A stretch of 28,871 bases of DNA from a virus. The stretch covers positions 1-28,871 of IMG/VR virus record IMGVR_UViG_3300045988_059318, one strand, 5' to 3'. How positions within the stretch are numbered: the first letter of the stretch is position 1; each line of letters begins with the position of its first letter. Positions 1-28,871 of this stretch are shown here, one piece after another. The position numbers and the translations under genes were made by a program. Under the pieces are notes generated by a model. The model was not told where the DNA came from. It was given only the letters and a program-made list of their open reading frames with translations, and made no database searches.

Positions 1-55
1 GAGGGTGTAAAGCTACTTTACAGAGGGTGTAAAGCTACTTTACAGAGGGTGTAAA
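1..55. repeat. 22-bp tandem repeat GAGGGTGTAAAGCTACTTTACA, 2.5 units. Each unit contains the 17-bp palindrome TGTAAAG-CTA-CTTTACA (iteron/operator-like).
   Basis: Read directly from the sequence. Units lie at 1-22 and 23-44, with a partial unit at 45-55. Bases 1-55 are identical to 28817-28871. Confidence 0.95.
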
Positions 56-75
56 AATATAACACTTTGCAAAAG

Positions 76-104
76 TTGCATATTATGACATTATGTGATA
101 TAGT
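76..104 (+). promoter_or_regulatory. Sigma-70-like promoter, TTGCAT-N17-TATAGT
   Basis: TTGCAT lies at 76-81, followed by a 17-nt spacer and TATAGT at 99-104. The -10 ends 7 nt before ATG 112, implying a leaderless or near-leaderless mRNA. Confidence 0.45.
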
Positions 105-2758: not shown

Positions 2759-2830
2759 TTTCCCGTGGTGTAATGGGTAGCACGGCAGTCTTTGGAACTG
2801 CTTGTTTTGGTTCGAGTCCAGACGGGAGAG
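2759..2830 (+). tRNA. tRNA-Gln(UUG): tRNA-Gln (anticodon UUG)
   Basis: Folded by hand. The acceptor stem is TTTCCCG/CGGGAGA (U1-A72, one G.U) and the D stem is GTGT/GCAC. The anticodon stem is GCAGT/ACTGC with loop CTTTGGA. The T arm is TTTGG-TTCGAGT-CCAGA. Confidence 0.85.
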
Positions 2831-2878
2831 CGAGACATTGGATAGAACGGGACGCGGTTATTGGTCGTGTTACCGTCA

Positions 2879-19586: not shown

Positions 19587-19886
19587 ATGGATATTACTCA
19601 GGCTGAGACTATCGCGGTTGCTATCGTCGGTTTGGTTGCTCCCGTGTTCGTGCAGGTTGTTAAACCTGTTCTGCCGGATAACATGACCGCCTTGTTTAGT
19701 CTCGCGGTCAGTGTCGTGCTGGGTATGTTGGCTATCGCGGCTGTGGGCGGGTTCAACCACGGTTATACGTGGAGTGTACTGCTTGTTGCCGTGATTGGTG
19801 TGTCGCAGACGGTTTACACTGTTGTCAATCAGGTGATGGGCGGCAAGCTTGGCAAAATGTTTGTTGACGAAAATACGTTGGCCTAG
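19587..19886 (+). CDS. Holin (multi-pass membrane protein)
   Basis: The product is 99 aa with three hydrophobic segments (IAVAIVGLVAPVFVQVV, LFSLAVSVVLGMLAIAAVGG, VLLVAVIGVSQTVYTVV). It lies next to the endolysin. Confidence 0.65.
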   Translation: MDITQAETIAVAIVGLVAPVFVQVVKPVLPDNMTALFSLAVSVVLGMLAIAAVGGFNHGYTWSVLLVAVIGVSQTVYTVVNQVMGGKLGKMFVDENTLA

Positions 19887-19892
19887 TATAAT
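19864..19892 (+). promoter_or_regulatory. Near-consensus sigma-70 promoter TTGACG-N17-TATAAT inside the last codons of the holin gene
   Basis: TTGACG lies at 19864-19869, followed by an exact 17-nt spacer and TATAAT at 19887-19892. Confidence 0.45.
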
Positions 19893-19896
19893 GTGG

Positions 19897-19984
19897 AGTG
19901 CTGAAAGTTTTGGCGATTGACTTTTAGTGCTGTCATTGATAAGCCGCACGGTTTTCTTTCACCGTGCGGCTTCTCCTTTTTTTT
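19897..19984 (+). ncRNA. Candidate small RNA (~85 nt): 12-bp G.U-containing hairpin plus terminator hairpin
   Basis: It lies downstream of the orphan promoter. Arms 19897-19908 and 19920-19931 pair with three G.U wobbles, which are valid only in the plus-strand RNA. The terminator at 19941-19984 follows. Confidence 0.35.
19941..19984 (+). terminator. Strong terminator at the convergence of the two arms
   Basis: AAGCCGCACGGT-tttctttc-ACCGTGCGGCTT is followed by CTCC and T8. The T-tract exists only for the plus strand. On the minus strand the same hairpin follows the HNH stop without a U-tract. Confidence 0.8.
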
Positions 19985-20324
19985 AAATGTCTTTCAAACC
20001 GTCCCACGTTTGCACTGGGATGCTTTCGGGTCGTGCGAACCCTGAAACGATTAATCCCAGTCGTTCGGCTTCTTTCACGTTCTCGTGTACCCAACCGTGG
20101 CAACCGGTGGTGCCTGACCCGCAGAGGGTTATGAGGTTCGAACTGGAATGCATTCCAGCATAGGGGTGCGAGCGTAAGCGCCGGTGGTGGATGGAGTAGC
20201 CGAAGGGCGTGTATCTTATGTCCCGTCCGCATCTTACGCACCGGTAGTGGTCACGTTCCAACACGAGTTGGCGGGTTTCTTCGGTCGGGTTTTTCTCTTT
20301 TGGTTTGCCTTCTTTCGCTAGCAT
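19983..20324 (-). CDS. HNH endonuclease
   Basis: The HNH/zinc pattern is RDHYRCVRCG...SIHHRRLRS...SNLITLCGSGTTGCHGWVHEN. ATG 20324 forms a TAATG overlap with the upstream gene. Confidence 0.8.
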   Translation of the reverse strand: MLAKEGKPKEKNPTEETRQLVLERDHYRCVRCGRDIRYTPFGYSIHHRRLRSHPYAGMHSSSNLITLCGSGTTGCHGWVHENVKEAERLGLIVSGFARPESIPVQTWDGLKDI

Positions 20325-20530
20325 TATTTCTCCGATTGCTCCACGCAAAATTCTGCTAATTGCGTGAGTGCAAACCCCAGCATGGCGTAGCTGTTCTTGC
20401 TGAGGGTTTCGGCGGTGCCGATCGTGTAGGTTTGTTTTTCCTTATTGGTGGTGTAGCGGAGTTTTTCTTCCACCATTGAGTCGGCTAGTTCAACGCTGAC
20501 ATGCATAATAAATTCTGGCATGTTTTTCAT
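20324..20530 (-). CDS. Hypothetical protein (68 aa)
   Basis: An operon ORF preceded by GGGAGGAAACAAA. It is coupled to both neighbours. Confidence 0.5.
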   Translation of the reverse strand: MKNMPEFIMHVSVELADSMVEEKLRYTTNKEKQTYTIGTAETLSKNSYAMLGFALTQLAEFCVEQSEK

Positions 20531-20688
20531 TTTGTTTCCTCCCTTGGTTGGAATGATGCGACTTGTTCGCCTTCGTCATCAAAAATTGTTGCGACGACTC
20601 CGTTTTCCACTGTTTTTCTTGCCGTGGCCACGGCTTGACTGAATGTGGCGCATACATAATCGACGCCGTTGAATCTTACTACATACAT
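20527..20688 (-). CDS. Hypothetical small protein (53 aa), not in the ORF track
   Basis: Translated by hand as MYVVRFNGVDYVCATFSQAVATARKTVENGVVATIFDDEGEQVASFQPREETK. The start lies 24 nt after GC hairpin A, the same geometry as the other hairpin-preceded genes. Confidence 0.5.
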   Translation of the reverse strand: MYVVRFNGVDYVCATFSQAVATARKTVENGVVATIFDDEGEQVASFQPREETK

Positions 20689-20711
20689 GTTTTATTTCTT
20701 TCATTAGTGGT

Positions 20712-20733
20712 GCCCCGCCCGCAAGGGCGGGGC
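20712..20733 (-). repeat. GC hairpin copy A: GCCCCGCCC-loop-GGGCGGGGC
   Basis: A 9-bp perfect stem with a 4-nt loop (TTGC in the sense orientation, inverted relative to copies B, C and E). It lies 8 nt after the stop of 20742-20978 and 24 nt before ATG 20688. Confidence 0.9.
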
Positions 20734-20741
20734 GGGTGGTG

Positions 20742-20978
20742 TCAGTCGCAGAGTTCTTCAATCTGTGCTTCATATGTGGTGTCATAGCTGGTTTCATGGA
20801 ACTTGTTGACACGCCCGAACGTGAAACCGTATTTGCGTTCACATTTGCGACGTATTGAACGGAGAATGTTCTTTGTTTCCACCGCTTCACTGTGGAACGT
20901 GTAGAAGGCGTCAAGTTTCGGGATGTCGATGGTTTGTTTTCCGTCGAAGTAGCTGATGTTGATTGTTGCGGTGTTCAT
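20742..20978 (-). CDS. Cassette ORF S1 (78 aa), paralog of 25203-25451
   Basis: Driven by leader L1. It shares MNTA.I, Y.FHSEAVE.KN, GFTFGRV and YEAQI/YEAEI with S4. Confidence 0.65.
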   Translation of the reverse strand: MNTATINISYFDGKQTIDIPKLDAFYTFHSEAVETKNILRSIRRKCERKYGFTFGRVNKFHETSYDTTYEAQIEELCD

Positions 20979-21045
20979 TTTGATTTGTCCTTCCTTGTTT
21001 GGTTGATAGTTTTATAATACATCACTATTGAGTGCGACACGCCGA
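20976..21045 (-). promoter_or_regulatory. Conserved leader L1 (promoter-like element, RBS and start codon)
   Basis: In the sense orientation it reads TCGGCGTGTCGCACTCAATAGTGATGTATTATAAAACTATCAACCAAACAAGGAAGGACAAATCAAAATG. It is 70 nt from ATG to motif end, as in L2. Confidence 0.6.
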
Positions 21046-21308
21046 CGTTCGACAAACACACCCCAACACATCGGATACTTCAATGGCACCAACCGGGACA
21101 CGCGATAATCAGCGCCATAACGCACTTCAGCAAGCCGAGCAATAACCGCGTGCGCTCTCTCCCTTGCTTCGGCAACCCGCTTATCATAGCCACGTTTGCG
21201 TTTCTCCCAACCGTTGCTAGTCCTCTCATACACCTCCCATACGACACCGTTTTCCGAATAATGAGACTGCGCACGATAGTCGTAAGCGTCAACGTTCCTA
21301 TATTTCAC
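21012..21308 (-). CDS. Hypothetical protein (98 aa)
   Basis: The start is GTG, preceded by GGGGGA. The 3' end runs through the L1 motif. Confidence 0.5.
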   Translation of the reverse strand: MKYRNVDAYDYRAQSHYSENGVVWEVYERTSNGWEKRKRGYDKRVAEARERAHAVIARLAEVRYGADYRVSRLVPLKYPMCWGVFVERRRVALNSDVL

Positions 21309-21320
21309 CGTATCCCCCTT

Positions 21321-21683
21321 TTAGTACATTTCAGCGATGTGTCGAGTGAACGCGCATACGCTGACTGCAGTCAGATAGCCACGTAATCCCGTCTTCCTAG
21401 CCATGAGAACCCAGACTGGGAAAGTGATGAAGGGTGCGAGACACCAACCGCACACGGCAAGATTCTTCAAGCTTTTCGCCTGTGCCTTTTTTCCTACCGC
21501 CACACAGTGTTTGCGGTTATCGTCCGTGGATTGCGTGAATTGTTCGTAATGGTCGGCTACTTTGTCGCACGCCATTTTCCAGCTTTCACGCATGATTCTT
21601 AATTTCAGTCCGTACCCGTCCGTGAGCTGGGCGCAAGTGTTGAGGTATCCGGCGACTAGTCCGGCCTGTACTGCTTTGTTCAT
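21321..21683 (-). CDS. Hypothetical membrane protein (120 aa)
   Basis: ATG 21683 forms an ATGA overlap with the upstream mini-ORF. There is a C-terminal hydrophobic segment (VCGWCLAPFITFPVWVLMA). Confidence 0.5.
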   Translation of the reverse strand: MNKAVQAGLVAGYLNTCAQLTDGYGLKLRIMRESWKMACDKVADHYEQFTQSTDDNRKHCVAVGKKAQAKSLKNLAVCGWCLAPFITFPVWVLMARKTGLRGYLTAVSVCAFTRHIAEMY

Positions 21684-21826
21684 TTCTTCGCTCCTTTGCG
21701 GTAGGTGTAGAGCGCCGCCAACATGCACGCGACACCGATAATATTAATGAAGTTCATGTTTTCGTTCGCAGATAGCACGATCCCGAAGAGAAAGAGTATT
21801 GTCACGAATCCGTCGTTTTTATTCAT
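21680..21826 (-). CDS. Small membrane protein (48 aa), not in the ORF track
   Basis: Translated by hand as MNKNDGFVTILFLFGIVLSANENMNFINIIGVACMLAALYTYRKGAKK. The start lies 24 nt after GC hairpin B. Confidence 0.45.
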   Translation of the reverse strand: MNKNDGFVTILFLFGIVLSANENMNFINIIGVACMLAALYTYRKGAKK

Positions 21827-21849
21827 TGTAGATTCCTTTCATTGGTGGT

Positions 21850-21871
21850 GCCCCGCCCTTGCGGGCGGGGC
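21850..21871 (-). repeat. GC hairpin copy B
   Basis: GCCCCGCCC-GCAA-GGGCGGGGC in the sense orientation. It lies 18 nt after the stop of S2 and 24 nt before ATG 21826. Confidence 0.9.
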
Positions 21872-21889
21872 GTCGATATTTTGACAAGC

Positions 21890-22114
21890 TTAAAAACCGT
21901 ATGCGCATTCGGCTTCGGAGAGCTCTTCCATGTGCTGTTCAATTCGATGCATCGGGTTAACATTTGAGATTATCAGGTAGTTGTATATTTTAGAAATATT
22001 GCCTGTGGACATTGCCGTGTGCGCGTAGTGTTCCCACAGACTGTTAGCGAGTGGATTATCAACATTGTTGAAATCGACGTGATGTGTAATGTTTTCGAGG
22101 TAAACGTATGACAT
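21890..22114 (-). CDS. Cassette ORF S2 (74 aa)
   Basis: ATG 22114 is placed by leader L2 (AAGGAAGGACAAAACAAAATG). The track start at 22201 would read through the leader. Confidence 0.6.
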   Translation of the reverse strand: MSYVYLENITHHVDFNNVDNPLANSLWEHYAHTAMSTGNISKIYNYLIISNVNPMHRIEQHMEELSEAECAYGF

Positions 22115-22181
22115 TTTGTTTTGTCCTTCCTTGTTTGGTTGATAATTACATAATACACTACTTGCGGACACGACACGCCGA
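22112..22181 (-). promoter_or_regulatory. Conserved leader L2
   Basis: In the sense orientation it reads TCGGCGTGTCGTGTCCGCAAGTAGTGTATTATGTAATTATCAACCAAACAAGGAAGGACAAAACAAAATG. It follows a terminator directly. Confidence 0.6.
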
Positions 22182-22224
22182 AAATAAAAAAAGGGAACCA
22201 ACGAAATTGCTTCGTAGATTCCCT
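22181..22224 (-). terminator. Rho-independent terminator on the minus strand
   Basis: In the sense orientation it reads AGGGAATCTACGAA-gcaa-TTTCGTTGGTTCCCT followed by TTTTTTTATTTT. It lies 4 nt after the stop of 22229-22507 and abuts the L2 motif. Confidence 0.7.
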
Positions 22225-22228
22225 AATC

Positions 22229-22507
22229 TCAACGACTGCAATACGCTAAGCACTGCACCTCAAGCGCATCCACATGGCGATAACACACCCCGTCGAACAC
22301 GAAAAAAGGCGCGCTAGAATACTTGTGAGACTTGCGCAGTGTCCAGTAACGGCTATTCCCCGGCTGAACGACCATGAGTGCAATCATAATGCCCGTTTTC
22401 TTCTTGATTCGCACCACCATTTTTCGTAGTTCGTCAATCAACTCACGGTGTTTACATCCAGCGCAATCGTCGAAGACCGCGTAAATGACACGTCGTGAAA
22501 TGCTCAC
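22229..22507 (-). CDS. Thioredoxin-fold / glutaredoxin-like protein
   Basis: VIYAVFDDCAGCKHRELIDEL (strand-CxxC-helix) and APFFVFDG (cis-Pro strand) are present. The GTG start forms a GTGA overlap. Confidence 0.45.
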   Translation of the reverse strand: MSISRRVIYAVFDDCAGCKHRELIDELRKMVVRIKKKTGIMIALMVVQPGNSRYWTLRKSHKYSSAPFFVFDGVCYRHVDALEVQCLAYCSR

Positions 22508-23391
22508 CAGTCTACACCTCCCAGTTTTTGCAGTTCGTCAATGAGAGTTAACGTCTGCAATTCTTTTGTCTCCTGTGCTTCGATTTCACTTGCAACACTC
22601 CGCCGGTCAACCGCGAACACCTCATGTTGCAAACTGCCATACACCCTATCATCGAACATGGTGAAATACACCGTTTGCAAGTCAGGGTTAACGACAAAAT
22701 ACTGCAACACTTGAGCTTGATACTGTTCGGGGATGAAGTCGAACTCTCGACGCGATTCTAGAATCTCCGGGAAGAGTTTGAGCGCCAACGACTGCAATTC
22801 ATCGCGTTGACTATTCGGAGTTTCCGAATCGTTGAGCATCTGGAATACGCGGAATGGAACAACCGTTTGGAGATGGTATTTCGTGCCCAGGCTTTTCGCT
22901 TCGAACGCGAACGTGGGATTATATTCCAGCCCGTTAATGTCGATTTGCGGCTTGGTGTGAGCGTCAGGACTGACCGCAATACGGTCGTCCACGTCACTTA
23001 CCCACATTCCAGTATCGAATTCCACAATGTCAGTGGGAATGTCAAGTTTCTCGCACGCCATCATGATGTTAGTGTTTTCCAAACGGTGGCCGCGCTCCAT
23101 TGGCGGTTCCCCGTCCGGCTGTTCCGCGATCATGTCGGCAAGAAACTGCCAAAAGTCGAGGTTGACTTTCAACCGTTCGTTATCTCGTTTGGCTTGTTCG
23201 GCTTTCACTCTGTATTCTTCGGCCTTTTCTTCGGTCTTTGCCTTGTCTGCCATGGCTTCGAGCTTGGCTACGTCCTTTTGGGCGTAATGTTCGAGCGCGA
23301 GTGTTCCGGCTTTGGTGCCAGTGATTTTGCCAATTCTGGCGTCTAACCATGCTTGCGTGTCCTGTGTTTGCGAAACGTTTAGGATCTTCAT
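22504..23391 (-). CDS. YqaJ-like (lambda Exo-type, PD-(D/E)XK) recombination exonuclease
   Basis: The N-terminus QTQDTQAWLDARIGKITGTKAGTL plus GHRLEN ... SPDAH ... FEAKS gives the catalytic pattern. Confidence 0.75.
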   Translation of the reverse strand: MKILNVSQTQDTQAWLDARIGKITGTKAGTLALEHYAQKDVAKLEAMADKAKTEEKAEEYRVKAEQAKRDNERLKVNLDFWQFLADMIAEQPDGEPPMERGHRLENTNIMMACEKLDIPTDIVEFDTGMWVSDVDDRIAVSPDAHTKPQIDINGLEYNPTFAFEAKSLGTKYHLQTVVPFRVFQMLNDSETPNSQRDELQSLALKLFPEILESRREFDFIPEQYQAQVLQYFVVNPDLQTVYFTMFDDRVYGSLQHEVFAVDRRSVASEIEAQETKELQTLTLIDELQKLGGVDW

Positions 23392-23392
23392 T

Positions 23393-23800
23393 TTAGTTTT
23401 CCTTCCTTACCGGTAATCCGTCTTCCGTGGTGGCGAGCGTGTATGCTTTCAGCAGTGTGCCCGCTATTTTTTGACGTCGTGCGGGCGGGATGCGTCGGAA
23501 CTTGTTTTCCCAATGCGCGACTTGGCATTGCCGTACACCGTACATTTTCGCCATTTCACGCTGGCTGATGCCGAACGCGTTGCGCAAATATTTCAATAAT
23601 TCGCTATCATCCAAAGAGTCAAGATAAATATTCCGACTGTTGACGGTGCGGAGATTGTTTTCATGGTCGAGTGTGAATAGGTTGCCGGTTTTTGACTGGA
23701 CAAGGTAGGCGTAAACGTCTTCTTTGATTCTGTATGTTCGCTCTCCGGCGACGGTTTTGAATGTGATGGGCATGGCTCCCGGCCATAGTGTGAGTCTCAT
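23393..23800 (-). CDS. XRE-type helix-turn-helix regulator with an unknown N-terminal domain
   Basis: The C-terminal LRNAFGISQREMAKMYGVRQCQVAHWENKFRRIP is a classic HTH_3-like motif. Confidence 0.65.
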   Translation of the reverse strand: MRLTLWPGAMPITFKTVAGERTYRIKEDVYAYLVQSKTGNLFTLDHENNLRTVNSRNIYLDSLDDSELLKYLRNAFGISQREMAKMYGVRQCQVAHWENKFRRIPPARRQKIAGTLLKAYTLATTEDGLPVRKEN

Positions 23801-24075
23801 TTATTCTCTCCCATAGTCTTTTCATCATAGAAGACGTATGCGATTCCGTTGACAATGTTGAATTGCCCTCGCACGATGCTTTGGTAAATTGTCGGTTCGA
23901 CCCCAGCCAAGTAGAGCAAGTCTAGTGCGTCCTCTCTGGAATCTGGATAGATTGCGATTTGCGGCGTGTAGTCTTTTAATTCAATGTCCGGTGAGGCTTC
24001 AGCCACTTCGCCAAGCTGGTCTAGCGTCTCTTTGAGGAACTTGACGTATTGAGCAAGGGTTATTGTATCTTTCAT
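23797..24075 (-). CDS. Hypothetical acidic protein (92 aa)
   Basis: The start lies 23 nt after GC hairpin C, and its stop overlaps the start of the HTH gene. Confidence 0.55.
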   Translation of the reverse strand: MKDTITLAQYVKFLKETLDQLGEVAEASPDIELKDYTPQIAIYPDSREDALDLLYLAGVEPTIYQSIVRGQFNIVNGIAYVFYDEKTMGENK

Positions 24076-24097
24076 TATTGTTCCTTTCGTTAGATGG

Positions 24098-24119
24098 TGC
24101 CCCGCCCTTGCGGGCGGGG
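24098..24119 (-). repeat. GC hairpin copy C
   Basis: GCCCCGCCC-GCAA-GGGCGGGGC in the sense orientation. It lies 12 nt after the S3 stop and 23 nt before ATG 24075. Confidence 0.9.
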
Positions 24120-24131
24120 CTGTGGTTTGGT

Positions 24132-24326
24132 TTAGAGTGCGTGTTCCTTGAGCAGTTCGGTGAACTCGTCGGTGTCTACCTGTTCATAATCGGTGTAGCC
24201 GTTCATGTCGCAGATGGTGCGAAGGTCTTTCGCGGCTCCGTAGGTGTCCCAATTGCCGTCATCCTGTCCGCTGTTTTGGATGTAGTTGACGATGTAGGCT
24301 TCTGCTGTGCTGAGGTTGATTTCCAT
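24132..24326 (-). CDS. Cassette ORF S3 (64 aa), strongly acidic
   Basis: Driven by leader L3. By hand count it has about 14 Asp/Glu against 3 Lys/Arg. Confidence 0.65.
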   Translation of the reverse strand: MEINLSTAEAYIVNYIQNSGQDDGNWDTYGAAKDLRTICDMNGYTDYEQVDTDEFTELLKEHAL

Positions 24327-24390
24327 TTTGTTTGTCCTTTCCTTGGTCGGTAATTACATAATACAATAGTTTTGATCACGACACGCCGGA
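24324..24390 (-). promoter_or_regulatory. Conserved leader L3
   Basis: It is 67 nt from ATG to motif end. By hand alignment, 59 of 67 positions are identical to L4/L5. It contains GTATTAT followed by the palindrome GTAATTAC. Confidence 0.6.
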
Positions 24391-24558
24391 CTAGAAACAA
24401 TCCATGACAACGAAACCCATACCCGCCAAACCAATAAGGATATCAGCCAATGCGAGAAGAATCATATAACTATCCTCACACCACAACGCCACCCCCAAAG
24501 CAACAGCGGACACAATCGTAAGCGCCAAGAAACCGCAGAATATAGCAACCTTTTTCAC
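24391..24558 (-). CDS. Small two-helix membrane protein (55 aa), not in the ORF track
   Basis: The GTG start is preceded by GGGAGG and forms a GTGA overlap with the ERF stop. The product reads MKKVAIFCGFLALTIVSAVALGVALWCEDSYMILLALADILIGLAGMGFVVMDCF. Confidence 0.45.
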   Translation of the reverse strand: MKKVAIFCGFLALTIVSAVALGVALWCEDSYMILLALADILIGLAGMGFVVMDCF

Positions 24559-25148
24559 TTATTGCCTCCCTTACTGATAGCCTGACGGAGAAGCATAACG
24601 TCATGTTCGGTCAAGTCCTGAGGCTTACGCACCTCATGGCCGAACTGCGATGCCAAAGCGTTGACGTAAAACCCTAGATTGGTTCCAGCGGCCTGAGCCA
24701 TGTCGTTAAGATCGTTGACTTCCTGTGCCGTGGCCTTCCGTGGTTGTTGTGGTGCAGAATAGTCGCGCATGGCGGCACCGTCATCGTCCTTGTCGGGGAA
24801 GATACCAAGAGCGGCGTAGAGGGAGTAGCGTCGCGCGTAGGTTACTGCGGAGCCGATTGCCTGCGGGTCGGGCACCACCACGAAGGGGTAGTCCCCCACA
24901 TTCAAGGTTTTTTCAGCGTCGAAAATGATTGTTTCGACCGTGCCGTAGCTCACTTTGTCTCCTACCGCACCCATGCGCACCACCTGCCGGAAGGCTAAAT
25001 CATACTTGGCGAAAATAGGCTTGATGGTCTTGAGAATGGTAGCAAGATTAAGGTACTTGTAGGTGCGTTGCCCGGCGTTGGCTATCAGGTCGGTGACGAA
25101 GTTGGGGACTTCGTTGAGTACTGCCATATATTTTTCTTCGAGTTTCAT
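24555..25148 (-). CDS. erf: ERF-family single-strand annealing protein
   Basis: YKYLNLATILKTIKPIFAKYDLAFRQ ... QAIGSAVTYARRYSLYAALGIFPDKDDDG is the ERF core signature. ATG 25148 is placed by hairpin D geometry. Confidence 0.8.
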   Translation of the reverse strand: MKLEEKYMAVLNEVPNFVTDLIANAGQRTYKYLNLATILKTIKPIFAKYDLAFRQVVRMGAVGDKVSYGTVETIIFDAEKTLNVGDYPFVVVPDPQAIGSAVTYARRYSLYAALGIFPDKDDDGAAMRDYSAPQQPRKATAQEVNDLNDMAQAAGTNLGFYVNALASQFGHEVRKPQDLTEHDVMLLRQAISKGGNK

Positions 25149-25170
25149 TATTGTTCCTTTCATTAATGGT

Positions 25171-25192
25171 GCCCCGCCCTTGCTGGCGGGGC
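25171..25192 (-). repeat. GC hairpin copy D (one mismatch at the loop-closing pair)
   Basis: GCCCCGCC-AGCAAG-GGCGGGGC in the sense orientation. It lies 10 nt after the S4 stop and 23 nt before ATG 25148. Confidence 0.9.
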
Positions 25193-25202
25193 GGGTGGTT
25201 GT

Positions 25203-25451
25203 TTAAAGATATTTTATTTCTGCCTCGTAGACTGCGCACTGGTCTAATCCTTGACGCCATGTGAAATCGTCTACAAGGCAGACTCGACCGAACGTGAAAC
25301 CTTCGTCGCGCTTGAGGATGTTGCGCATGTTTGCCAATTGGTTTTTAATTTCCACTGCTTCGCTGTGGAATTCGTAGACTTCTCCGGTTTCTTTGATTAC
25401 GAGACGTTGTGTGCAGATGCGATGGTTGAGGTAGATGATTGCGGTGTTCAT
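25203..25451 (-). CDS. Cassette ORF S4 (82 aa), paralog of 20742-20978
   Basis: Driven by leader L4. It shares sequence blocks with S1. Confidence 0.65.
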   Translation of the reverse strand: MNTAIIYLNHRICTQRLVIKETGEVYEFHSEAVEIKNQLANMRNILKRDEGFTFGRVCLVDDFTWRQGLDQCAVYEAEIKYL

Positions 25452-25515
25452 TTTCTTTGTCCTTTCCTTGGTCTGTAATTACATAATACATTATTGTTGA
25501 GTGCGACACGCCGGA
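25445..25515 (-). promoter_or_regulatory. Conserved leader L4 (71 bp identical to L5)
   Basis: Bases 25445-25515 equal 27835-27905 base for base. The block includes the motif TCCGGCGTGTCG, GTATTAT, the palindrome TGTAATTACA, the RBS AAGGAAAGGA and ATGAACA. Confidence 0.65.
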
Positions 25516-25934
25516 CGCGGTAGAATCTCGCCCAACCGACTCAACCCCCTAGCGGTCTCAAGACCACGGAACCGTTTAGCGGACTGTGCGGCTTCATCGA
25601 GACTACGCCCACTCAACCGGTTACGCCGATACTCCCAACTCGCATCACCCTCAATGCCAAGCGCGGCCATCTCACGCGTAATGTCGACTTCGGAAGGCTT
25701 ATGGTCACGTTTCCACCTACGCCAAAACGCATTGAGGTCGGCGGGCATGAGATACGGGCGCTTCTTCGCGTATTCCGGGTTTGCGAAAAATTGGCGTATG
25801 GCTTCTTTCGCCACGTCTAATCGCATGTCAGTTGCTAACGCTTCCATCCATGCGGCCACCTGCATATCGGTCACAAGACGATTATCAAAGGCGCTGGCAT
25901 AGGTTAGGAGTGCTTGCACTTGCAACTTGTTCAT
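25491..25934 (-). CDS. Hypothetical protein (147 aa)
   Basis: An operon ORF with an ATGA overlap upstream. The 3' end reads through the L4 motif. I recognise no family. Confidence 0.55.
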   Translation of the reverse strand: MNKLQVQALLTYASAFDNRLVTDMQVAAWMEALATDMRLDVAKEAIRQFFANPEYAKKRPYLMPADLNAFWRRWKRDHKPSEVDITREMAALGIEGDASWEYRRNRLSGRSLDEAAQSAKRFRGLETARGLSRLGEILPRPACRTQQ

Positions 25935-26344
25935 TTCAATTCATCCTTATATTCCACTTGCATTAATTTCACGACTTTCACCATGCCGTCCAAGTCACTT
26001 TTTCTAAGGTATCGCCAGAAGAGACCTTCCGTATAGGTGGTGGCTTGGTGTGCAAGGTCTAACATGTTGTCCATGTAGAGACAGCACTTACCCACTTGCG
26101 TGAGGTTGTGCGCGTCCAATGGTTTGCCATCAATTTGCAGACGGCATTTCTCGTCATTGTCGATAGCCCTCTGTAGATACCATTCTGCTTTCTGCAAGTC
26201 TTCAAGCGGATGTCCCTTGAGTCTATACCGCCACACGTATTTTATTGCGTTGCCTACGCAAAAGCTGTGGTATTGCGCGACTTCGATGCATTCGCAAGGT
26301 TTCGTGTTGTCGGTGTAGTGTGCTGGATGATTAACGTTGTCCAT
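25931..26344 (-). CDS. DUF3310-family phage protein
   Basis: NHPAHYT...CECIEV...GNAIKYVWRYRLKG.PLEDLQKAEWYLQRAI matches the DUF3310 signature as I recall it. Confidence 0.65.
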   Translation of the reverse strand: MDNVNHPAHYTDNTKPCECIEVAQYHSFCVGNAIKYVWRYRLKGHPLEDLQKAEWYLQRAIDNDEKCRLQIDGKPLDAHNLTQVGKCCLYMDNMLDLAHQATTYTEGLFWRYLRKSDLDGMVKVVKLMQVEYKDELK

Positions 26345-26356
26345 GATTGTTTCCTT

Positions 26357-26764
26357 TCAGAATTGCGGTGTGATTGAGTCCAGAAAATCGTCAAGGTAAA
26401 GGATGAAGTCTTCTTGCATTGAATCGTGTGGCTGTGGCTGATAGTCCGCATGTAGCCATTGGATGCCACTGGACATTTTCATCCACTTAATACCGGCAAG
26501 ATACACGAGTATCGTATTGTTGACTTTATCAATCGTCCAGTCTGAGGGAGCCACAACGTCCATCATGTAACTTTTAGATTGGGCTCCGCTTCTCTGTCGG
26601 TTTTCTAAGCCTTTCCATGCTGAGAGCCATACGCGGTAGCGGGCTATTTTGGGGTTGTCTTGTATGGTTAGTGCGGTTTCGAATATTGCCGTGTCTTTTG
26701 TCTTGTCGCACTCAACGACGGAATGCATGTCGTACGGTGGTATATCGTTGAATAGTGTCAGCAT
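26357..26764 (-). CDS. Hypothetical protein (135 aa)
   Basis: The start lies 23 nt after GC hairpin E. I recognise no motif. Confidence 0.55.
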   Translation of the reverse strand: MLTLFNDIPPYDMHSVVECDKTKDTAIFETALTIQDNPKIARYRVWLSAWKGLENRQRSGAQSKSYMMDVVAPSDWTIDKVNNTILVYLAGIKWMKMSSGIQWLHADYQPQPHDSMQEDFILYLDDFLDSITPQF

Positions 26765-26786
26765 TTTATTTTCCTTTCAGTTGGGT

Positions 26787-26808
26787 GCCCCGCCCTTGCG
26801 GGCGGGGC
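26787..26808 (-). repeat. GC hairpin copy E (no cassette ORF upstream)
   Basis: GCCCCGCCC-GCAA-GGGCGGGGC in the sense orientation. It is preceded by about 137 nt with no convincing ORF. Confidence 0.9.
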
Positions 26809-26945
26809 GATAACGTCAGATTGCTTGACGGAAATTGGATATTTCGTCGTTATGGTGCTTTACCGTCTCGACGTATTTCAAGGCTTCCTCGTATCCGGAG
26901 TAAGTAAACTCTGGTGGGGTTAATTAATTGCGTAGTCGCATGACC

Positions 26946-27299
26946 TTAGTCTGCGAGTACCGCTAATATGCTGCTCTCACAGTCCGGTCTTGGTAGTGGC
27001 TGCAATACGCCCATATCCTCATAGTACTGGTTCAATGCTGGCATGCTTGTTTGCATGTCCGGGTTGTCGGAATCGTAGAAGACTGTTGAGCGGAGGTATG
27101 GCGAGTATTTATCATATCGCAAGTGCAGTGGGCAGAAGAATCTCGGCTCATTATCACCGGTGAACAGGCACAGCCATTCTTCTTCGTAGATTATGTTCTC
27201 GACTGCGTCTTCCGTGCTTGACGCCCAGAAGTCGTAGGACATGTGGCAGTCTGGGTAGTCGCATTTTGCCAAGTAGGTTGTTTTCACTCTCATGCTCAT
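26946..27299 (-). CDS. Hypothetical Cys/His-containing protein (117 aa)
   Basis: CDYPDCH ... CPLH is a possible metal-binding motif. There is an ATGA overlap with the upstream gene. Confidence 0.55.
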   Translation of the reverse strand: MSMRVKTTYLAKCDYPDCHMSYDFWASSTEDAVENIIYEEEWLCLFTGDNEPRFFCPLHLRYDKYSPYLRSTVFYDSDNPDMQTSMPALNQYYEDMGVLQPLPRPDCESSILAVLAD

Positions 27300-27520
27300 T
27301 CGACGCTCCTTTCGGCTTCGCGCATGATGTGCCGCATGTCGGCATCGGTCAGCTTAGCTAGTGTCAGGTTGGCACCGGCCAAGTCTACGCCTGTCAGGCC
27401 TGCGCCTGTCAGTTCTGCGCCTCCCATGTCTGCGCCGCGTAGGCATCTGCGCCCGTATTTTTCGAGTATTTCTTCGATGTTGTCGCCTTCGAGTGTGGCT
27501 GTTGGTGTTTTAATTTTCAT
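27296..27520 (-). CDS. Pentapeptide-repeat protein (74 aa)
   Basis: GADMGGAELTGAGLTGVDLAGANLTLAKLTDADM contains consecutive A(D/N)LXX-type pentapeptides. A strong RBS (GAAAGGAAAGGA) precedes the gene. Confidence 0.7.
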   Translation of the reverse strand: MKIKTPTATLEGDNIEEILEKYGRRCLRGADMGGAELTGAGLTGVDLAGANLTLAKLTDADMRHIMREAERSVE

Positions 27521-27548
27521 TATGGTTCCTTTCCTTTCTGTTGATTGT

Positions 27549-27560
27549 GGGGGGGGGGGG
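27549..27560. repeat. Homopolymer G12 (C12 in the sense strand) in the 5' UTR of the pentapeptide-repeat gene
   Basis: Counted directly. It lies 29 nt upstream of ATG 27520. It can pair with GGGGG (sense strand, 27573-27577) to give a variant hairpin where the GC hairpin sits in the other cassettes. Confidence 0.9.
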
Positions 27561-27589
27561 ATTGTGCGGTTGCCCCCGCCGCTATAGTG

Positions 27590-27841
27590 TCACCACGTCT
27601 GCGCGAACTGTTCGACCTGCTCGGCGCTGAAGGTCTTGGCGGGGTCACGGTAGTCTTCGTCGGCTGTGGTGAAGGCGTAGGACGTGTAGTAGGCGTTGCC
27701 TTCGTCGTCGACGGCCTGATCGCGGTCGATGCTCTCCCAGCTGCCGCCTTCCTCTTTGGCTTCGATCGTATAGTCCTCGCTCATCCAGTAGTGGTAGAGG
27801 TCGGCGTAGGTGCTGGTCTTGGTGAATTCGATGCTGTTCAT
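27590..27841 (-). CDS. Cassette ORF S5 (83 aa), strongly acidic
   Basis: Driven by leader L5. It is rich in Asp/Glu/Tyr (EDYTIEAKEEGG, DDEGNAYY, ADEDYRD) with few basic residues. Confidence 0.65.
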   Translation of the reverse strand: MNSIEFTKTSTYADLYHYWMSEDYTIEAKEEGGSWESIDRDQAVDDEGNAYYTSYAFTTADEDYRDPAKTFSAEQVEQFAQTW

Positions 27842-27905
27842 TTTCTTTGTCCTTTCCTTGGTCTGTAATTACATAATACATTATTGTTGAGTGCGACACG
27901 CCGGA
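27835..27905 (-). promoter_or_regulatory. Conserved leader L5 (71 bp identical to L4)
   Basis: See L4. A second copy of the motif CGACACGCCGGA lies at 27941-27952, inside the 3' end of the replisome organizer gene. Confidence 0.65.
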
Positions 27906-27931
27906 AAAAGAAAATGCCCGCCGAAAATAAA

Positions 27932-28696
27932 TCACGGACGCGACACGCCGGACTCAATCTGAAAGCCGAAGAGGTCAGTTTGCGACTGCATCGCTTGAGT
28001 GAGATTCTGCATGTTCCTTTCCGCGTTCGTGACGGGCTTGCGGGCTTGTGGCGGGTCTGGACGGTATTCGTCATTCCATCGTTCGCCGTTAAGCCATGTT
28101 GCGAAATTGGGGATAAACCGGGTTTCCGTGTTGGCGCACTGTGCGGCAAATGCTTGCACCTTGGCCATGAGAAAGGCGCTGTTAATGCCTACTTTTGCTT
28201 TACGCCATGCCTTGTAAGCGGCCATCTTGGCCACATGCTTGGGGTAGATTGTCCACAGTTGTTCGAATGCGTTCGGGTATTCTTCGCGCTTATGTTGCGC
28301 GGGTTCCGTCGGTGCGGGTTCGCGTGTGGGTTCTACCGTGGTAGTCGATTCTGGAGCTTGGTAAAGCGTTTTATCAAGCGTATCAGACTCAGAATGGCGC
28401 TTCACATTGTCTACGTCCATTGTGACGTGATACACATTGCTCGACGCCCCACCATTATCAAGCTTGCGACGTCTTTTGACTATAAGACCCTTATCCTCCA
28501 AGCTTTTAAGAGCTTTGAGTACGGTTGGTTTGCTTAGCAATGATTCGGCGCATAGTGTGGCGAGAGACGGGAAGCATTCGCCGCTATCGTTTGTGTGGTC
28601 GGCTAATACGAGATATACGAGCTTTTCATTAGCAGTCTCGAAGTGCTTCCCTCTGATAACCCAGTGGCGTACTGCCATAAAACCATAATCACTCAT
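27932..28696 (-). CDS. Replisome organizer / replication initiator-like protein (N-terminal winged helix)
   Basis: LVYLVLADHTNDSGECFPSLATLCAESLLSKPTVLKALKSLEDKGLI is typical of the phage replisome-organizer N-terminal wHTH. The C-terminus has YPKHVAKMAAYKAWRKA ... FATWLNGERWNDE. The gene lies next to the iterons. Confidence 0.6.
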   Translation of the reverse strand: MSDYGFMAVRHWVIRGKHFETANEKLVYLVLADHTNDSGECFPSLATLCAESLLSKPTVLKALKSLEDKGLIVKRRRKLDNGGASSNVYHVTMDVDNVKRHSESDTLDKTLYQAPESTTTVEPTREPAPTEPAQHKREEYPNAFEQLWTIYPKHVAKMAAYKAWRKAKVGINSAFLMAKVQAFAAQCANTETRFIPNFATWLNGERWNDEYRPDPPQARKPVTNAERNMQNLTQAMQSQTDLFGFQIESGVSRP

Positions 28697-28703
28697 AGCT
28701 CAC

Positions 28704-28732
28704 ATTGTATGTCAATTACCTTAATCGCGCAA
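28704..28732 (-). promoter_or_regulatory. Sigma-70-like promoter TTGCGC-N17-TACAAT for the early arm
   Basis: In the sense orientation, TTGCGC (28732-28727) is followed by a 17-nt spacer and TACAAT (28709-28704). The -10 ends 7 nt before ATG 28696, which implies a leaderless mRNA. Confidence 0.45.
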
Positions 28733-28766
28733 CTTCTTTGTTTGTTTCTTTTCTTAATTGGTTGTA

Positions 28767-28797
28767 CTTCAATGGTTATTCTTCAATGGTTATTCTT
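28767..28797. repeat. 14-bp tandem repeat CTTCAATGGTTATT, 2.2 copies
   Basis: Read directly. It lies between the early promoter and the 22-bp array. Confidence 0.9.
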
Positions 28798-28798
28798 A

Positions 28799-28871
28799 GT
28801 GTAAAGCTACTTTACAGAGGGTGTAAAGCTACTTTACAGAGGGTGTAAAGCTACTTTACAGAGGGTGTAAA
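28799..28871. repeat. 22-bp palindromic repeat array, continuing into bases 1-55
   Basis: GTGTAAAGCTACTTTACA lies at 28799-28816. Full units follow at 28817-28838 and 28839-28860, with a partial unit at 28861-28871. Confidence 0.95.

Follow-up and report, generated by a model that had tools for sequence, protein, structure and literature searches.

GC-rich stem-loops between exchangeable promoter–ORFan cassettes and conserved early gene blocks in a probable Bifidobacteriaceae phage

The early arm and its five stem-loops

We analysed positions 1 to 28,871 of the IMG/VR virus record IMGVR_UViG_3300045988_059318, and this whole stretch of 28,871 nucleotides (nt) is here referred to as the window. 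The early genes, at about 19980–28700, are all located on the minus strand, so the sense transcript is the reverse complement. This early arm is made up of five units, and each unit comprises a promoter repeat, one small open reading frame (ORF) of 64–83 amino acids (aa), here called an ORFan, a GC-rich hairpin and a block of 2–4 genes (Table 1). The subject of this work is the hairpin, an intercistronic stem-loop that joins an exchangeable cassette of promoter and ORFan to a conserved early block without a promoter. These hairpins are real, conserved and functionally constrained.

When at most two mismatches are allowed, the pattern GCCCCGCCC-N4-GGGCGGGGC has exactly 5 matches in the window, all on the sense (minus) strand, whereas 0 matches were found in dinucleotide-preserving shuffles of the window (n=100). 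An earlier note on this DNA had already placed five GC hairpins here. Its positions agree with our search apart from copy C, which lies one base off the 24098-24119 given there, and it described the loops as we find them (GCAA in three copies, inverted in A, and one mismatch in D, the A.G at the closing pair). In all copies the order on the sense strand is stop codon, A/C-rich spacer of 7–18 nt, stem, ACC(A/C), linker, ribosome-binding site (RBS) and ATG. The linker between stem and RBS is A/C-rich and free of G and U, and the RBS, a strong one made up of purines, is GAAAGGA, or GAAAGAA in copy A. From the last stem base to the ATG there are 23, 23, 23, 22 and 22 nt in copies A to E, respectively, so that the ATG begins at +23/+24, which is the distance of 23–24 nt already recorded in the note. 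The tail after the stem is ACCA in four copies and ACCC in copy E, and a U-tract is found in none; the note's “ACCA, no U-tract” thus holds for all five copies in its second part and fails for copy E in its first. A promoter hidden between hairpin and ATG was ruled out, because the linker is 22–23 nt long and consists mostly of the RBS; the note had likewise seen no promoter room before the downstream genes.

The isolated hairpins have folding energies of −21.5 to −22.4 kcal/mol, with −18.4 kcal/mol for hairpin D. Each of them is present in the minimum free energy and centroid folds of its own 121-nt context, in which the RBS is largely unpaired and the helix is not extended into the flanks. 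At the gathering threshold of Rfam, tRNA was the sole match in the window and no family was obtained for the hairpin; at E ≤ 1, the early region 19900-28871 gave one sub-threshold match, to the rnk leader, which overlaps hairpin B. We also searched the exact 22-mer in 185,579 species genomes and obtained 45 scattered single copies in unrelated bacteria, none of them in Bifidobacterium, in arrays or in prophages. A repetitive extragenic palindromic (REP) element of the host, a CRISPR repeat and a common prophage feature were rejected on these 45 matches.

The phage's terminase shares 53% identity with those of two honey-bee gut phages of Bifidobacterium asteroides, BlindBasel1 and BlindUri1, and the nearest genomic relatives of its endolysin are in Bifidobacterium genomes. 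These two relationships make one of the Bifidobacteriaceae, and hence an actinobacterium, the most likely host. No match was obtained among GenBank phages when the 8-kb region was searched by megablast, and a 100-nt query in a distant-mode search gave only chance-level matches (E ~0.3). In IMG/VR, many contigs of about 30 kb carry the same hairpin. A protein-guided search with the exonuclease then yielded 28 loci of the window's own clade (89–98% aa identity) and 52 loci of a second one, clade 2 (about 48%). Literature searches found no paper on these elements in Bifidobacterium phages and none on the phages BlindBasel1 and BlindUri1.

A second repeat family in the window is promoter-like, 71 nt long and present in 5 copies. 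On the sense strand it contains a CGGCGTGTCG box, 14 nt, an AT-rich TGTATTAT box, GTAATTA, a short leader, the RBS and ATG. The TGTATTAT box is −10-like, and a −35 element is not recognisable. We infer that this repeat is a promoter, because of the −10-like box and because canonical promoters are found at the equivalent place in other clades (TTGACA-17-TATACT in BlindBasel1 and TGTGATATAAT in clade 2). Four of the hairpins come about 250–350 nt behind a 71-nt repeat, with one small ORFan in between, and the fifth (E) follows a rearranged cassette. The genes of the core blocks are tightly packed or overlapping, and no promoter of their own was recognised. Pfam and PHROG searches of the small cassette ORFs gave no match. 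An extra CCGGCGTGTCG box at 27939-27949 (minus strand), inside the 3' end of a 254-aa HTH_36 gene and 47 nt upstream of the P5 box, may be a regulator binding site.

In the rearranged fifth unit, a C12 run and two extra genes come after the first ORFan. The truncated remnant upstream of hairpin E is the 3' part of an ORFan whose complete form is present in a relative (locus L010). The run of 12 C on the sense strand (27549-27560), which comes after GCGGCGGGGGCAACCGCACAAU just behind the first ORFan of the fifth promoter, occupies the position taken by a GC hairpin in relatives (L022), and in three loci (L015, L026 and L028) C-runs abut the 5' side of the hairpin. Such runs could be slippage-prone sites or hotspots of sequencing error.

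Table 1. Features of the early arm and its border in the window
Feature	Positions	Strand	Description
Hairpin A	20712-20733	-	9-bp (base pair) G/C stem; sense loop UUGC (inverted relative to orthologues, which have GCAA); heads block D4
Hairpin B	21850-21871	-	9-bp stem, loop GCAA; heads block D3
Hairpin C	24099-24120	-	9-bp stem, loop GCAA; heads block D1
Hairpin D	25171-25192	-	8 bp plus A.G mismatch at loop-closing pair, loop GCAA; heads ERF block D0
Hairpin E	26787-26808	-	9-bp stem, loop GCAA; heads block D2; truncated cassette remnant upstream
Linker A	20689-20711	-	ACCACUAAUGAAAGAAAUAAAAC; RBS 20696-20701; ATG 20686-20688
Linker B	21827-21849	-	ACC..GAAAGGA; RBS 21834-21839; ATG 21824-21826
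Linker C	24076-24098	-	RBS 24082-24087; ATG 24073-24075
Linker D	25149-25170	-	RBS 25155-25160; ERF ATG 25146-25148
Linker E	26765-26786	-	RBS 26772-26777; ATG 26762-26764
Promoter repeat P1	20976-21046	-	71-nt repeat: CGGCGUGUCG box, N14, TGTATTAT, leader, RBS
Promoter repeat P2	22112-22182	-	71-nt repeat; canonical terminator directly before
Promoter repeat P3	24320-24390	-	71-nt repeat
Promoter repeat P4	25445-25515	-	71-nt repeat; 100% identity with P5 over 71 nt
Promoter repeat P5	27835-27905	-	71-nt repeat
ORFan U2	20742-20978	-	78 aa; paralogue of 25203-25451 (39% aa identity)
ORFan U6	21890-22114	-	74 aa
ORFan U0	24132-24326	-	64 aa, acidic
ORFan U2	25203-25451	-	82 aa
ORFan U5	27590-27841	-	83 aa, acidic; hairpin directly after it in relatives, here C12 run and two extra genes
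Cassette remnant	26809-26945	-	looks coding, no start codon, ends ..EFTYSGYEEALKYVETVKHHNDEISNFRQAI*; upstream of hairpin E
Core block D4	19983-20688	-	53-aa, 68-aa and HNH genes, overlapping or tightly packed
Core block D3	21012-21826	-	three genes
Core block D1	22229-24075	-	92-aa gene, HTH_3 protein, YqaJ-type exonuclease, second 92-aa gene
Core block D0	24391-25148	-	ERF recombinase, 55-aa membrane protein
Core block D2	25491-26764	-	135-aa, DUF3310 and 147-aa genes
Canonical terminator, early strand	22181-22223	-	imperfect 13-bp stem 22193-22223, then U7AU4; z = -4.8
Canonical terminator, rightward (late) strand	19941-19982	+	12-bp stem (19941-19972), then CTCCT8

Fixed placement, changing stems and shuffled cassettes

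The local context was counted over 84 hairpins, namely those of the first set of loci and the window. Here the stem lies 7–11 nt from the RBS and mostly 21–23 nt from the start codon; the loop is GCAA in 68/84 and ACGC in 8/84, with few others, and the flanks are A/C-rich with 5–10% G. A distance of 200–400 nt separates the hairpin from the preceding promoter repeat in 106 of 113 cases, and the first ORF after the promoter ends 3–18 nt before the stem in 101 of 113.

The counts of slots and cassettes refer to 29 related genomes of the window's own clade. Downstream of the 116 hairpins in these genomes there is always one of five gene families, which represent five invariant blocks, and the ORF between promoter and hairpin comes from nine families spread over the five slots. 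For example, U1 is found in D3, D0, D2 and D4, U3 in D0 and D2, and U6 in D0, D3 and D4. Homology starts or stops at the hairpin when the same ORFan is compared in different slots, and also when the same slot is compared with different ORFans in it. Because homology breaks at the hairpin in both comparisons, the hairpin is a mosaic joint, and it most likely acts as a recombination junction between cassettes. Hairpin variants move together with the downstream gene, and the ACGC loop accompanies ERF whatever ORFan precedes.

The stem itself is different in more distant phages. In BlindBasel1 the hairpin is GGGCGGGAG-AAACAG-CTCCCGCCC, followed by ACCATCATGAAAGGAACC..ATG, and lies behind a canonical promoter and a 122-aa ORF. 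BlindUri1 has this hairpin with an inverted loop, plus a different second one, GGCGGGGT-TAACG-ACCCCGCC and then ACCCACTGAAAGGAACC. In clade 2, TGTGGGCGGG-ACTCGTCA-CCCGCCCACA and then CCCAACCGAAAGGACAAC..ATG stand before the exonuclease gene, with compensated and loop-inverted variants, and some genomes of this clade have an additional stem GTCTCGCGGCC before ERF. These distant phages have 30–50% aa identity in a few common early proteins, and they carry unrelated stems at the same position with the A/C linker and GAAAGGA. Across all clades the distance from stem to RBS is 7–12 nt, and the loops elsewhere are unrelated and 3 to 8 nt long. The GNRA loop pointed out in the earlier note is therefore present in the sense strand but cannot be taken as essential, since it is inverted or replaced in orthologues and unrelated in the other clades. 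Moreover, unlike stems stand side by side within one genome (BlindUri1 and L113), which favours a structural role of a generic kind over recognition by one sequence-specific protein.

Among 67 distinct clade sequences, 94% of the pair cells are Watson-Crick or G.U. Compensatory double changes are found at three pairs, such as GCCACGCCC/GGGCGTGGC and GCCCCACCC/GGGTGGGGC; they amount to 5 cells vs 1.0 ± 0.9 in column shuffles, of which 0/500 reach 5, and slid controls are exceeded too. As the stem itself varies so little, this signal is modest, and the different stems of the distant phages are the stronger evidence for a conserved structure. Selection at the RNA level is likely.

Five independent loop inversions were found: in copy A of the window, in L027, in L152, between BlindBasel1 and BlindUri1, and in the late-strand terminator at 19941 (19952-19961). 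The inverted pairs observed are GCAA/UUGC, ACGC/GCGT, ACTCGTCA/TGACGAGT, AAACAG/TTGTTT (L033 vs L034) and TTTTCTTTCA/TGAAAGAAAA. Such changes look like mutation of the DNA itself, of the kind left when the template switches at a hairpin or cruciform.

Such inversions are what one would expect of dynamic DNA palindromes, and the hairpin might be purely recombinational or mutational, persisting via cassette exchange or as a fragile site and having no role in expression. The homology breakpoints at the hairpin and the shuffling of ORFans among slots agree with this explanation, as do the extra gene of BlindUri1, which is flanked by two hairpins, the highly indel-rich upstream regions of clade 2 and the ERF and YqaJ recombination pair carried by the phage. 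However, it does not account for unrelated stems that have the same position, the same RBS spacing and a tail free of T and G across clades; stems of this kind at one placement indicate selection on structure and position, beyond shared homology. The clade-2 hairpins, moreover, are single-copy and have no intragenomic partner. We consider a palindrome of this kind improbable as the whole explanation.

An operator or roadblock in the DNA, for which the stoperators of Cluster A mycobacteriophages are the model, would be a 22-bp palindrome bound by a dimeric regulator that times elongation into the core blocks. A perfect inverted repeat in five near-identical copies, one downstream of each promoter, would suit such a protein, helix-turn-helix (HTH) proteins are encoded nearby, and the start-associated inverted repeats of other actinobacteriophages have been proposed as protein sites (PMC3203893). 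Against it, single sites are compensated in both arms while their sister sites keep the consensus, different stems occur within one genome, and the spacer varies from 3 to 8 nt between clades. A stem of G and C only, with variable loops, fits stability and not base-specific contacts, and an operator is in our judgement distinctly improbable.

Some observations on these genomes are recorded here in their own right. In the clade-2 locus L108 (5010-5100 and 6090-6160), repeated GTCCTA(G/C) motifs, GTCCTAGCGTCCTAGCGTCCTAATTGG..GGGCGTCCTAGGCAGTCCTACTAGGG, lie just upstream of early promoters and look like operators. In the Arthrobacter phage Coral (L172 401-438 / NC_048099.1 22346-22383), the gp35/gp34 junction reads TAA-CCAACCACCCC-GGCCGGCCC-GCAA-GGGCCGGCC-ACC-N7-AAAGGAG-N8-ATG. 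This single case, which was reached via a chance-level BLAST match and lies downstream of a repressor-integrase operon, hints as a lead that U-less GC hairpins with an ACC tail before the RBS may be wider among actinobacteriophages.

At the edge of the early arm in the window, 28696-28745 (minus strand) carries a leaderless-type promoter of the first early gene, TTGCGC-17-TACAAT with 7 nt to the ATG; this type is typical of actinobacteria and consistent with the inferred host. Both ends of the window (1-77 and 28795-28871) contain tandem 22-bp repeats GAGGGTGTAAAGCTACTTTACA, each holding the palindrome TGTAAAG-CTA-CTTTACA; these adjoin the HTH_36/DnaD-like gene 27932-28696 and may be iterons or operators. 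The identity of positions 1-55 with 28817-28871 points to a terminal repeat or to an overlap left by circular assembly. Upstream of the terminase gene, a non-coding stretch of 600 nt holds two tRNA genes, Ser-GCU at 2488-2573 and Gln-UUG at 2759-2831 (both plus strand), neither with an encoded 3' CCA.

Termination, read-through and processing

The tails of the hairpins were compared with those of terminators in the same phages. Among RBS-linked hairpins of three clades (n=119), T accounts for at most 1% at +1 to +4, and C is found at +2 in 81% and at +3 in 96%, with G at about 0%. At least 4 T in the first 8 nt after the stem were present in 0/119 of these hairpins vs 34/98 of the other hairpins in the same loci. 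The late-region hairpins of the window have T-rich tails, and in clade 2 a terminator AGGCCGGG-CGAGT-CCCGGCCT-T7 stands before a promoter. The early-strand terminator 22193-22223, which a simple terminator scan had missed, is located immediately upstream of P2 and is the sole block end of the early arm with a U-run signal; hairpin C lies inside the unit that ends at this U7 terminator 1.9 kb downstream. The elements thus have in common with canonical terminators a stable G/C hairpin, and they lack both a U-tract of at least 3 U and a position at the end of a unit.

Read-through is required, because the linker of 22–23 nt has no room for a promoter and the promoter repeats are found only upstream of the ORFans. 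By tail and position, we regard the hairpins as read-through elements rather than simple terminators, as the earlier note had argued, and the ACC tail resembles an “anti-U-tract”. A role as terminators for antisense (plus strand) transcripts was also thought unlikely, as the tails on that side are G/T-rich and variable and have no U-tract.

A leaky attenuator without a U-tract is the alternative that the arrangement itself brings to mind. In this case part of the polymerases would stop at the hairpin and the ORFan would be made in excess, either constitutively or until a phage antiterminator relieves the stop. A promoter, a short first gene, a hairpin and promoter-less genes follow the logic of the lambda early operons, with their immediate-early vs delayed-early control (N, tR1, tL1). 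The distance of 3–18 nt from the stop codon in most cases is terminator-like, the hybrid after the ACC is A/U-rich, and in two clade-2 genomes the hairpin comes before the promoter and serves the upstream unit. The promoter early stem-loop (PeSL) elements of T4-like phages have G/C stem-loops that acted as strong terminators in reporters, lowering downstream lacZ like rrnB T1, and were proposed as terminator or attenuator (PMC2839356). Moreover, early hairpins of the Streptomyces phage phiC31 without poly-U were reported as terminators by Ingham, Hunter & Smith 1995, according to the papers that cite this work (PMC3993855, PMC2602773). On the other side stands the avoidance of T at +1 to +4 in the 119 elements, against the U-runs on true terminators of the same genomes. 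Intrinsic termination is considered to need 3 or more U next to the stem, and with purified mycobacterial RNA polymerase no termination occurred at U-less hairpins, even when NusA/NusG were present (PMC3993855). Downstream of the hairpins lie essential genes of recombination and replication for which there is no other promoter, and domain searches of the phage proteins recognised no antiterminator gene. Weak attenuation is a credible alternative, although on balance less likely than not.

Beside the early arm, the plus-strand unit 19864-19982 between the holin (plus strand) and HNH (minus strand) genes has a near-consensus sigma70 promoter, TTGACG-17-TATAAT (11/12), about 45 nt upstream of the terminator 19941-19972. 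The unit is kept in relatives, in some of which the terminator loop is inverted, and it could encode a small RNA of about 80 nt, antisense to early read-through.

The reading that we prefer, with slightly less than even confidence, is that the hairpin is RNA punctuation, i.e. a barrier to exonucleases or a landmark for processing, with the RBS left open. Transcription would start at the promoter repeat about 250–350 nt upstream and pass the ORFan and the hairpin before it enters the core block; read-through would occur because ACC and not a U-tract follows the stem, so that the RNA:DNA hybrid is not weakened. In the RNA, a hairpin of −22 kcal/mol would be a barrier to exonucleases. Endonucleolytic cuts in the single-stranded A/C-rich flanks (CCACCC upstream, ACC downstream) could then split the ORFan segment from the core segment. 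The flanks are thought of as cut sites because they resemble the preferred context of actinobacterial RNase E, which cuts single-stranded C-rich RNA 5' of C, notably in intergenic regions and 5' untranslated regions (PMC10641625). The ORFan mRNA would be left with a protective 3' hairpin, and the core mRNA would start with a hairpin and/or a polypurine RBS occupied by ribosomes. With the local G and C locked in the stem, the RBS would remain free of pairing behind any upstream cassette. In the DNA, the homology for swapping cassettes among the five slots could come from the two repeats, hairpin and promoter.

The constant RBS distance of 7–12 nt and the linkage of hairpin variants to the downstream gene tie the role to the downstream cistron, and the linker free of G and U, which gives the RBS no pairing partner, fits such a role. 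There are precedents in actinobacteria. U-less hairpins have been suggested to stabilise RNA or to define processed 3' ends (PMC3993855). The katG mRNA of Mycobacterium smegmatis is cut from the furA-katG transcript and stabilised by the polypurine GAAAGGAAA, 4 nt before the start codon, and a 5' stem-loop with the Shine-Dalgarno (SD) sequence behind it protects gyrase mRNA (PMC2358910).

Several points weigh against RNA punctuation. First, in two clade-2 genomes (L150 and L157) the homologous hairpin is followed by the −10 region of a promoter; there it serves the upstream unit and cannot be a 5' element of the downstream mRNA. Second, G.U and C.A mismatches are found 9 vs 10 times, mostly as inherited events, so that there is no asymmetry between sense and antisense. 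Third, compensatory changes and loop inversions could come from palindrome-templated mutation of the DNA. Fourth, a purely thermodynamic role does not need the near-identity of the five copies, which we attribute to recombinational homogenisation. The termination reported for the hairpins of PeSL and phiC31 may be counted here as well.

The earlier note had compared the hairpins with the RNase III sites between T7 early genes, and their intercistronic position in a polycistronic early transcript agrees with this. However, RNase III substrates need about 20 bp of double-stranded RNA, about two helical turns, and the stem is far below this: it has 9 bp and a tetraloop, with no internal loop, and its helix is not extended in the folds. 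An RNase III site is very improbable. Among the roles listed in the earlier note, processing or stability and weak attenuation are the candidates that stay.

The stem with its ACCA could also be taken for a tRNA-like minihelix, handled by RNase P or CCA-related enzymes, or for a mimic of a solitary CRISPR repeat. Stem plus NCCA is found in 49/84 window-clade copies and CCCA in clade 2, and the prevalence of C at +2 and +3 would suit a minihelix. But ACCC follows the stem in 21/84 and ACAA or ACAC in 11/84, Rfam gave no tRNA-like match to the hairpin, and the phage tRNA genes themselves lack an encoded CCA. For the CRISPR mimic, the search for exact matches of the 22-mer had returned only the scattered single copies in 45 unrelated genomes, outside Bifidobacterium and outside arrays. 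Both versions are highly unlikely.

Relation to known systems and significance

The closest known system is, on our comparison, the PeSL cassette of T4-like phages (Arbiol et al. 2010, PMC2839356; Comeau et al. 2014, PMC4122927), and the present element is best seen as a variant of known regulatory and shuffling cassettes, not a new principle. Both have a G/C stem-loop adjoining the SD sequence in an early hyperplastic region, together with a repeated motif that is a strong promoter in PeSL and a putative promoter here, and both flank small ORFans, which recombination between repeats shuffles, inserts and deletes; the nine families in 5 slots of 29 genomes show this modular shuffling for the window's clade. 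In the PeSL cassette, however, promoter and stem-loop form one composite intergenic motif, whereas here they are split, with the promoter 5' and the hairpin 3' of the ORFan, and the composite form is found only in the clade-2 loci L150 and L157. The present hairpin also differs in that it heads a promoter-less multi-gene core block and excludes T after the stem. It belongs to a siphovirus-type genome of 29 kb with a probable actinobacterial host, and is known here from sequence.

The early region of phiC31, as far as it is described in the citing papers, has in common with the window an actinobacteriophage early region with multiple conserved early promoters and stable hairpins without a U-tail. 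It differs in that termination was reported for phiC31, whereas the present hairpins, known from their sequence, would be obligatorily read through and have a fixed RBS spacing. Whether actinobacteria terminate without a U-tract has been called into question by later work in vitro (PMC3993855).

Start-associated repeats of other actinobacteriophages include the start-associated sequences (SAS) and extended SAS (ESAS) of Cluster K (PMC3203893), the Cluster EF SAS GGGAAAGGACCCC of Microbacterium phages and the 18-bp inverted repeats of Cluster EG, 14–22 bp upstream of start codons (PMC7302621), and the 17-bp palindromes of Cluster O (PMC4351075). Like the present hairpins they are short, often inverted repeats, confined to the non-structural arm, at a fixed short distance from the start and with a conserved polypurine RBS adjacent. 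They are found at 10–34 scattered sites, in contrast to five here, each tied to a promoter–ORFan cassette. The Cluster K SAS is an asymmetric 13-bp motif 3–8 bp before starts in 11–19 copies; GAAAGGA lacks its GGG...CCC frame, heads only 5 blocks and is an ordinary anti-SD match. The ESAS are imperfect 17-bp inverted repeats whose departures lend no support to RNA pairing, unlike the mostly perfect, G/C-only and compensated stems found here, in which 94% of cells pair.

In the furA-katG and gyrase mRNAs of mycobacteria there is likewise a small upstream gene co-transcribed with no intergenic promoter, GAAAGGAA(A) just before the start, and a stem-loop followed by the SD sequence that protects downstream mRNA; they are, however, single host cases in which processing and stabilisation were shown by experiment, while both are inferred here (PMC2358910). 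The T7 RNase III sites are also intercistronic hairpins of a polycistronic early transcript and define mRNAs with 3' hairpins, but their duplexes are irregular, contain internal loops and measure about 20 bp or more, in place of a 9-bp stem and a tetraloop. Morons, reportedly described by Juhala et al. in 2000, are promoter-gene-terminator units inserted between phage genes. An accessory gene with its own promoter and stem-loop, intergenic and varying between related phages, is common to both systems; morons differ in having canonical terminators and neighbours independent of the moron promoter, whereas here the cassette promoter is apparently the sole one for the core block.

The context given in the earlier note was incomplete, and the 71-nt promoter repeats, the ORFan cassettes and their shuffling, the role as a mosaic joint and the genuine U-tract terminators are added here. 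Put together, these suggest, as a tentative and rather doubtful proposal, a five-slot exchange platform with the promoter repeat on the left and the hairpin on the right, in which ORFans are swapped by the phage's own ERF and exonuclease and the hairpin is both joint and RNA insulator; it would be a PeSL-like system of independent origin in small actinobacteriophages, with a hairpin dedicated to read-through by its anti-terminator tail. The cassette ORFans are candidate host-takeover or anti-defence genes.

As no more than a weak attenuator, the hairpin would be a regulatory feature of the ordinary kind. If the platform exists, its insulator makes the expression of the essential blocks independent of the upstream cassette, and it would show how a small lytic phage keeps essential early operons running while it exchanges accessory genes upstream. 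A hairpin with a C-rich, U-free tail would be a natural “read-through insulator”, informative on the signals that govern processing and stability of mRNA in Actinobacteria, a group in which U-less hairpins are frequent and a matter of dispute, and it is a possible genetic part for Bifidobacterium engineering. Moreover, the five slots point to nine ORFan families, presumed to be highly expressed, as candidates for host takeover or anti-defence in the phages of bee-gut Bifidobacterium.

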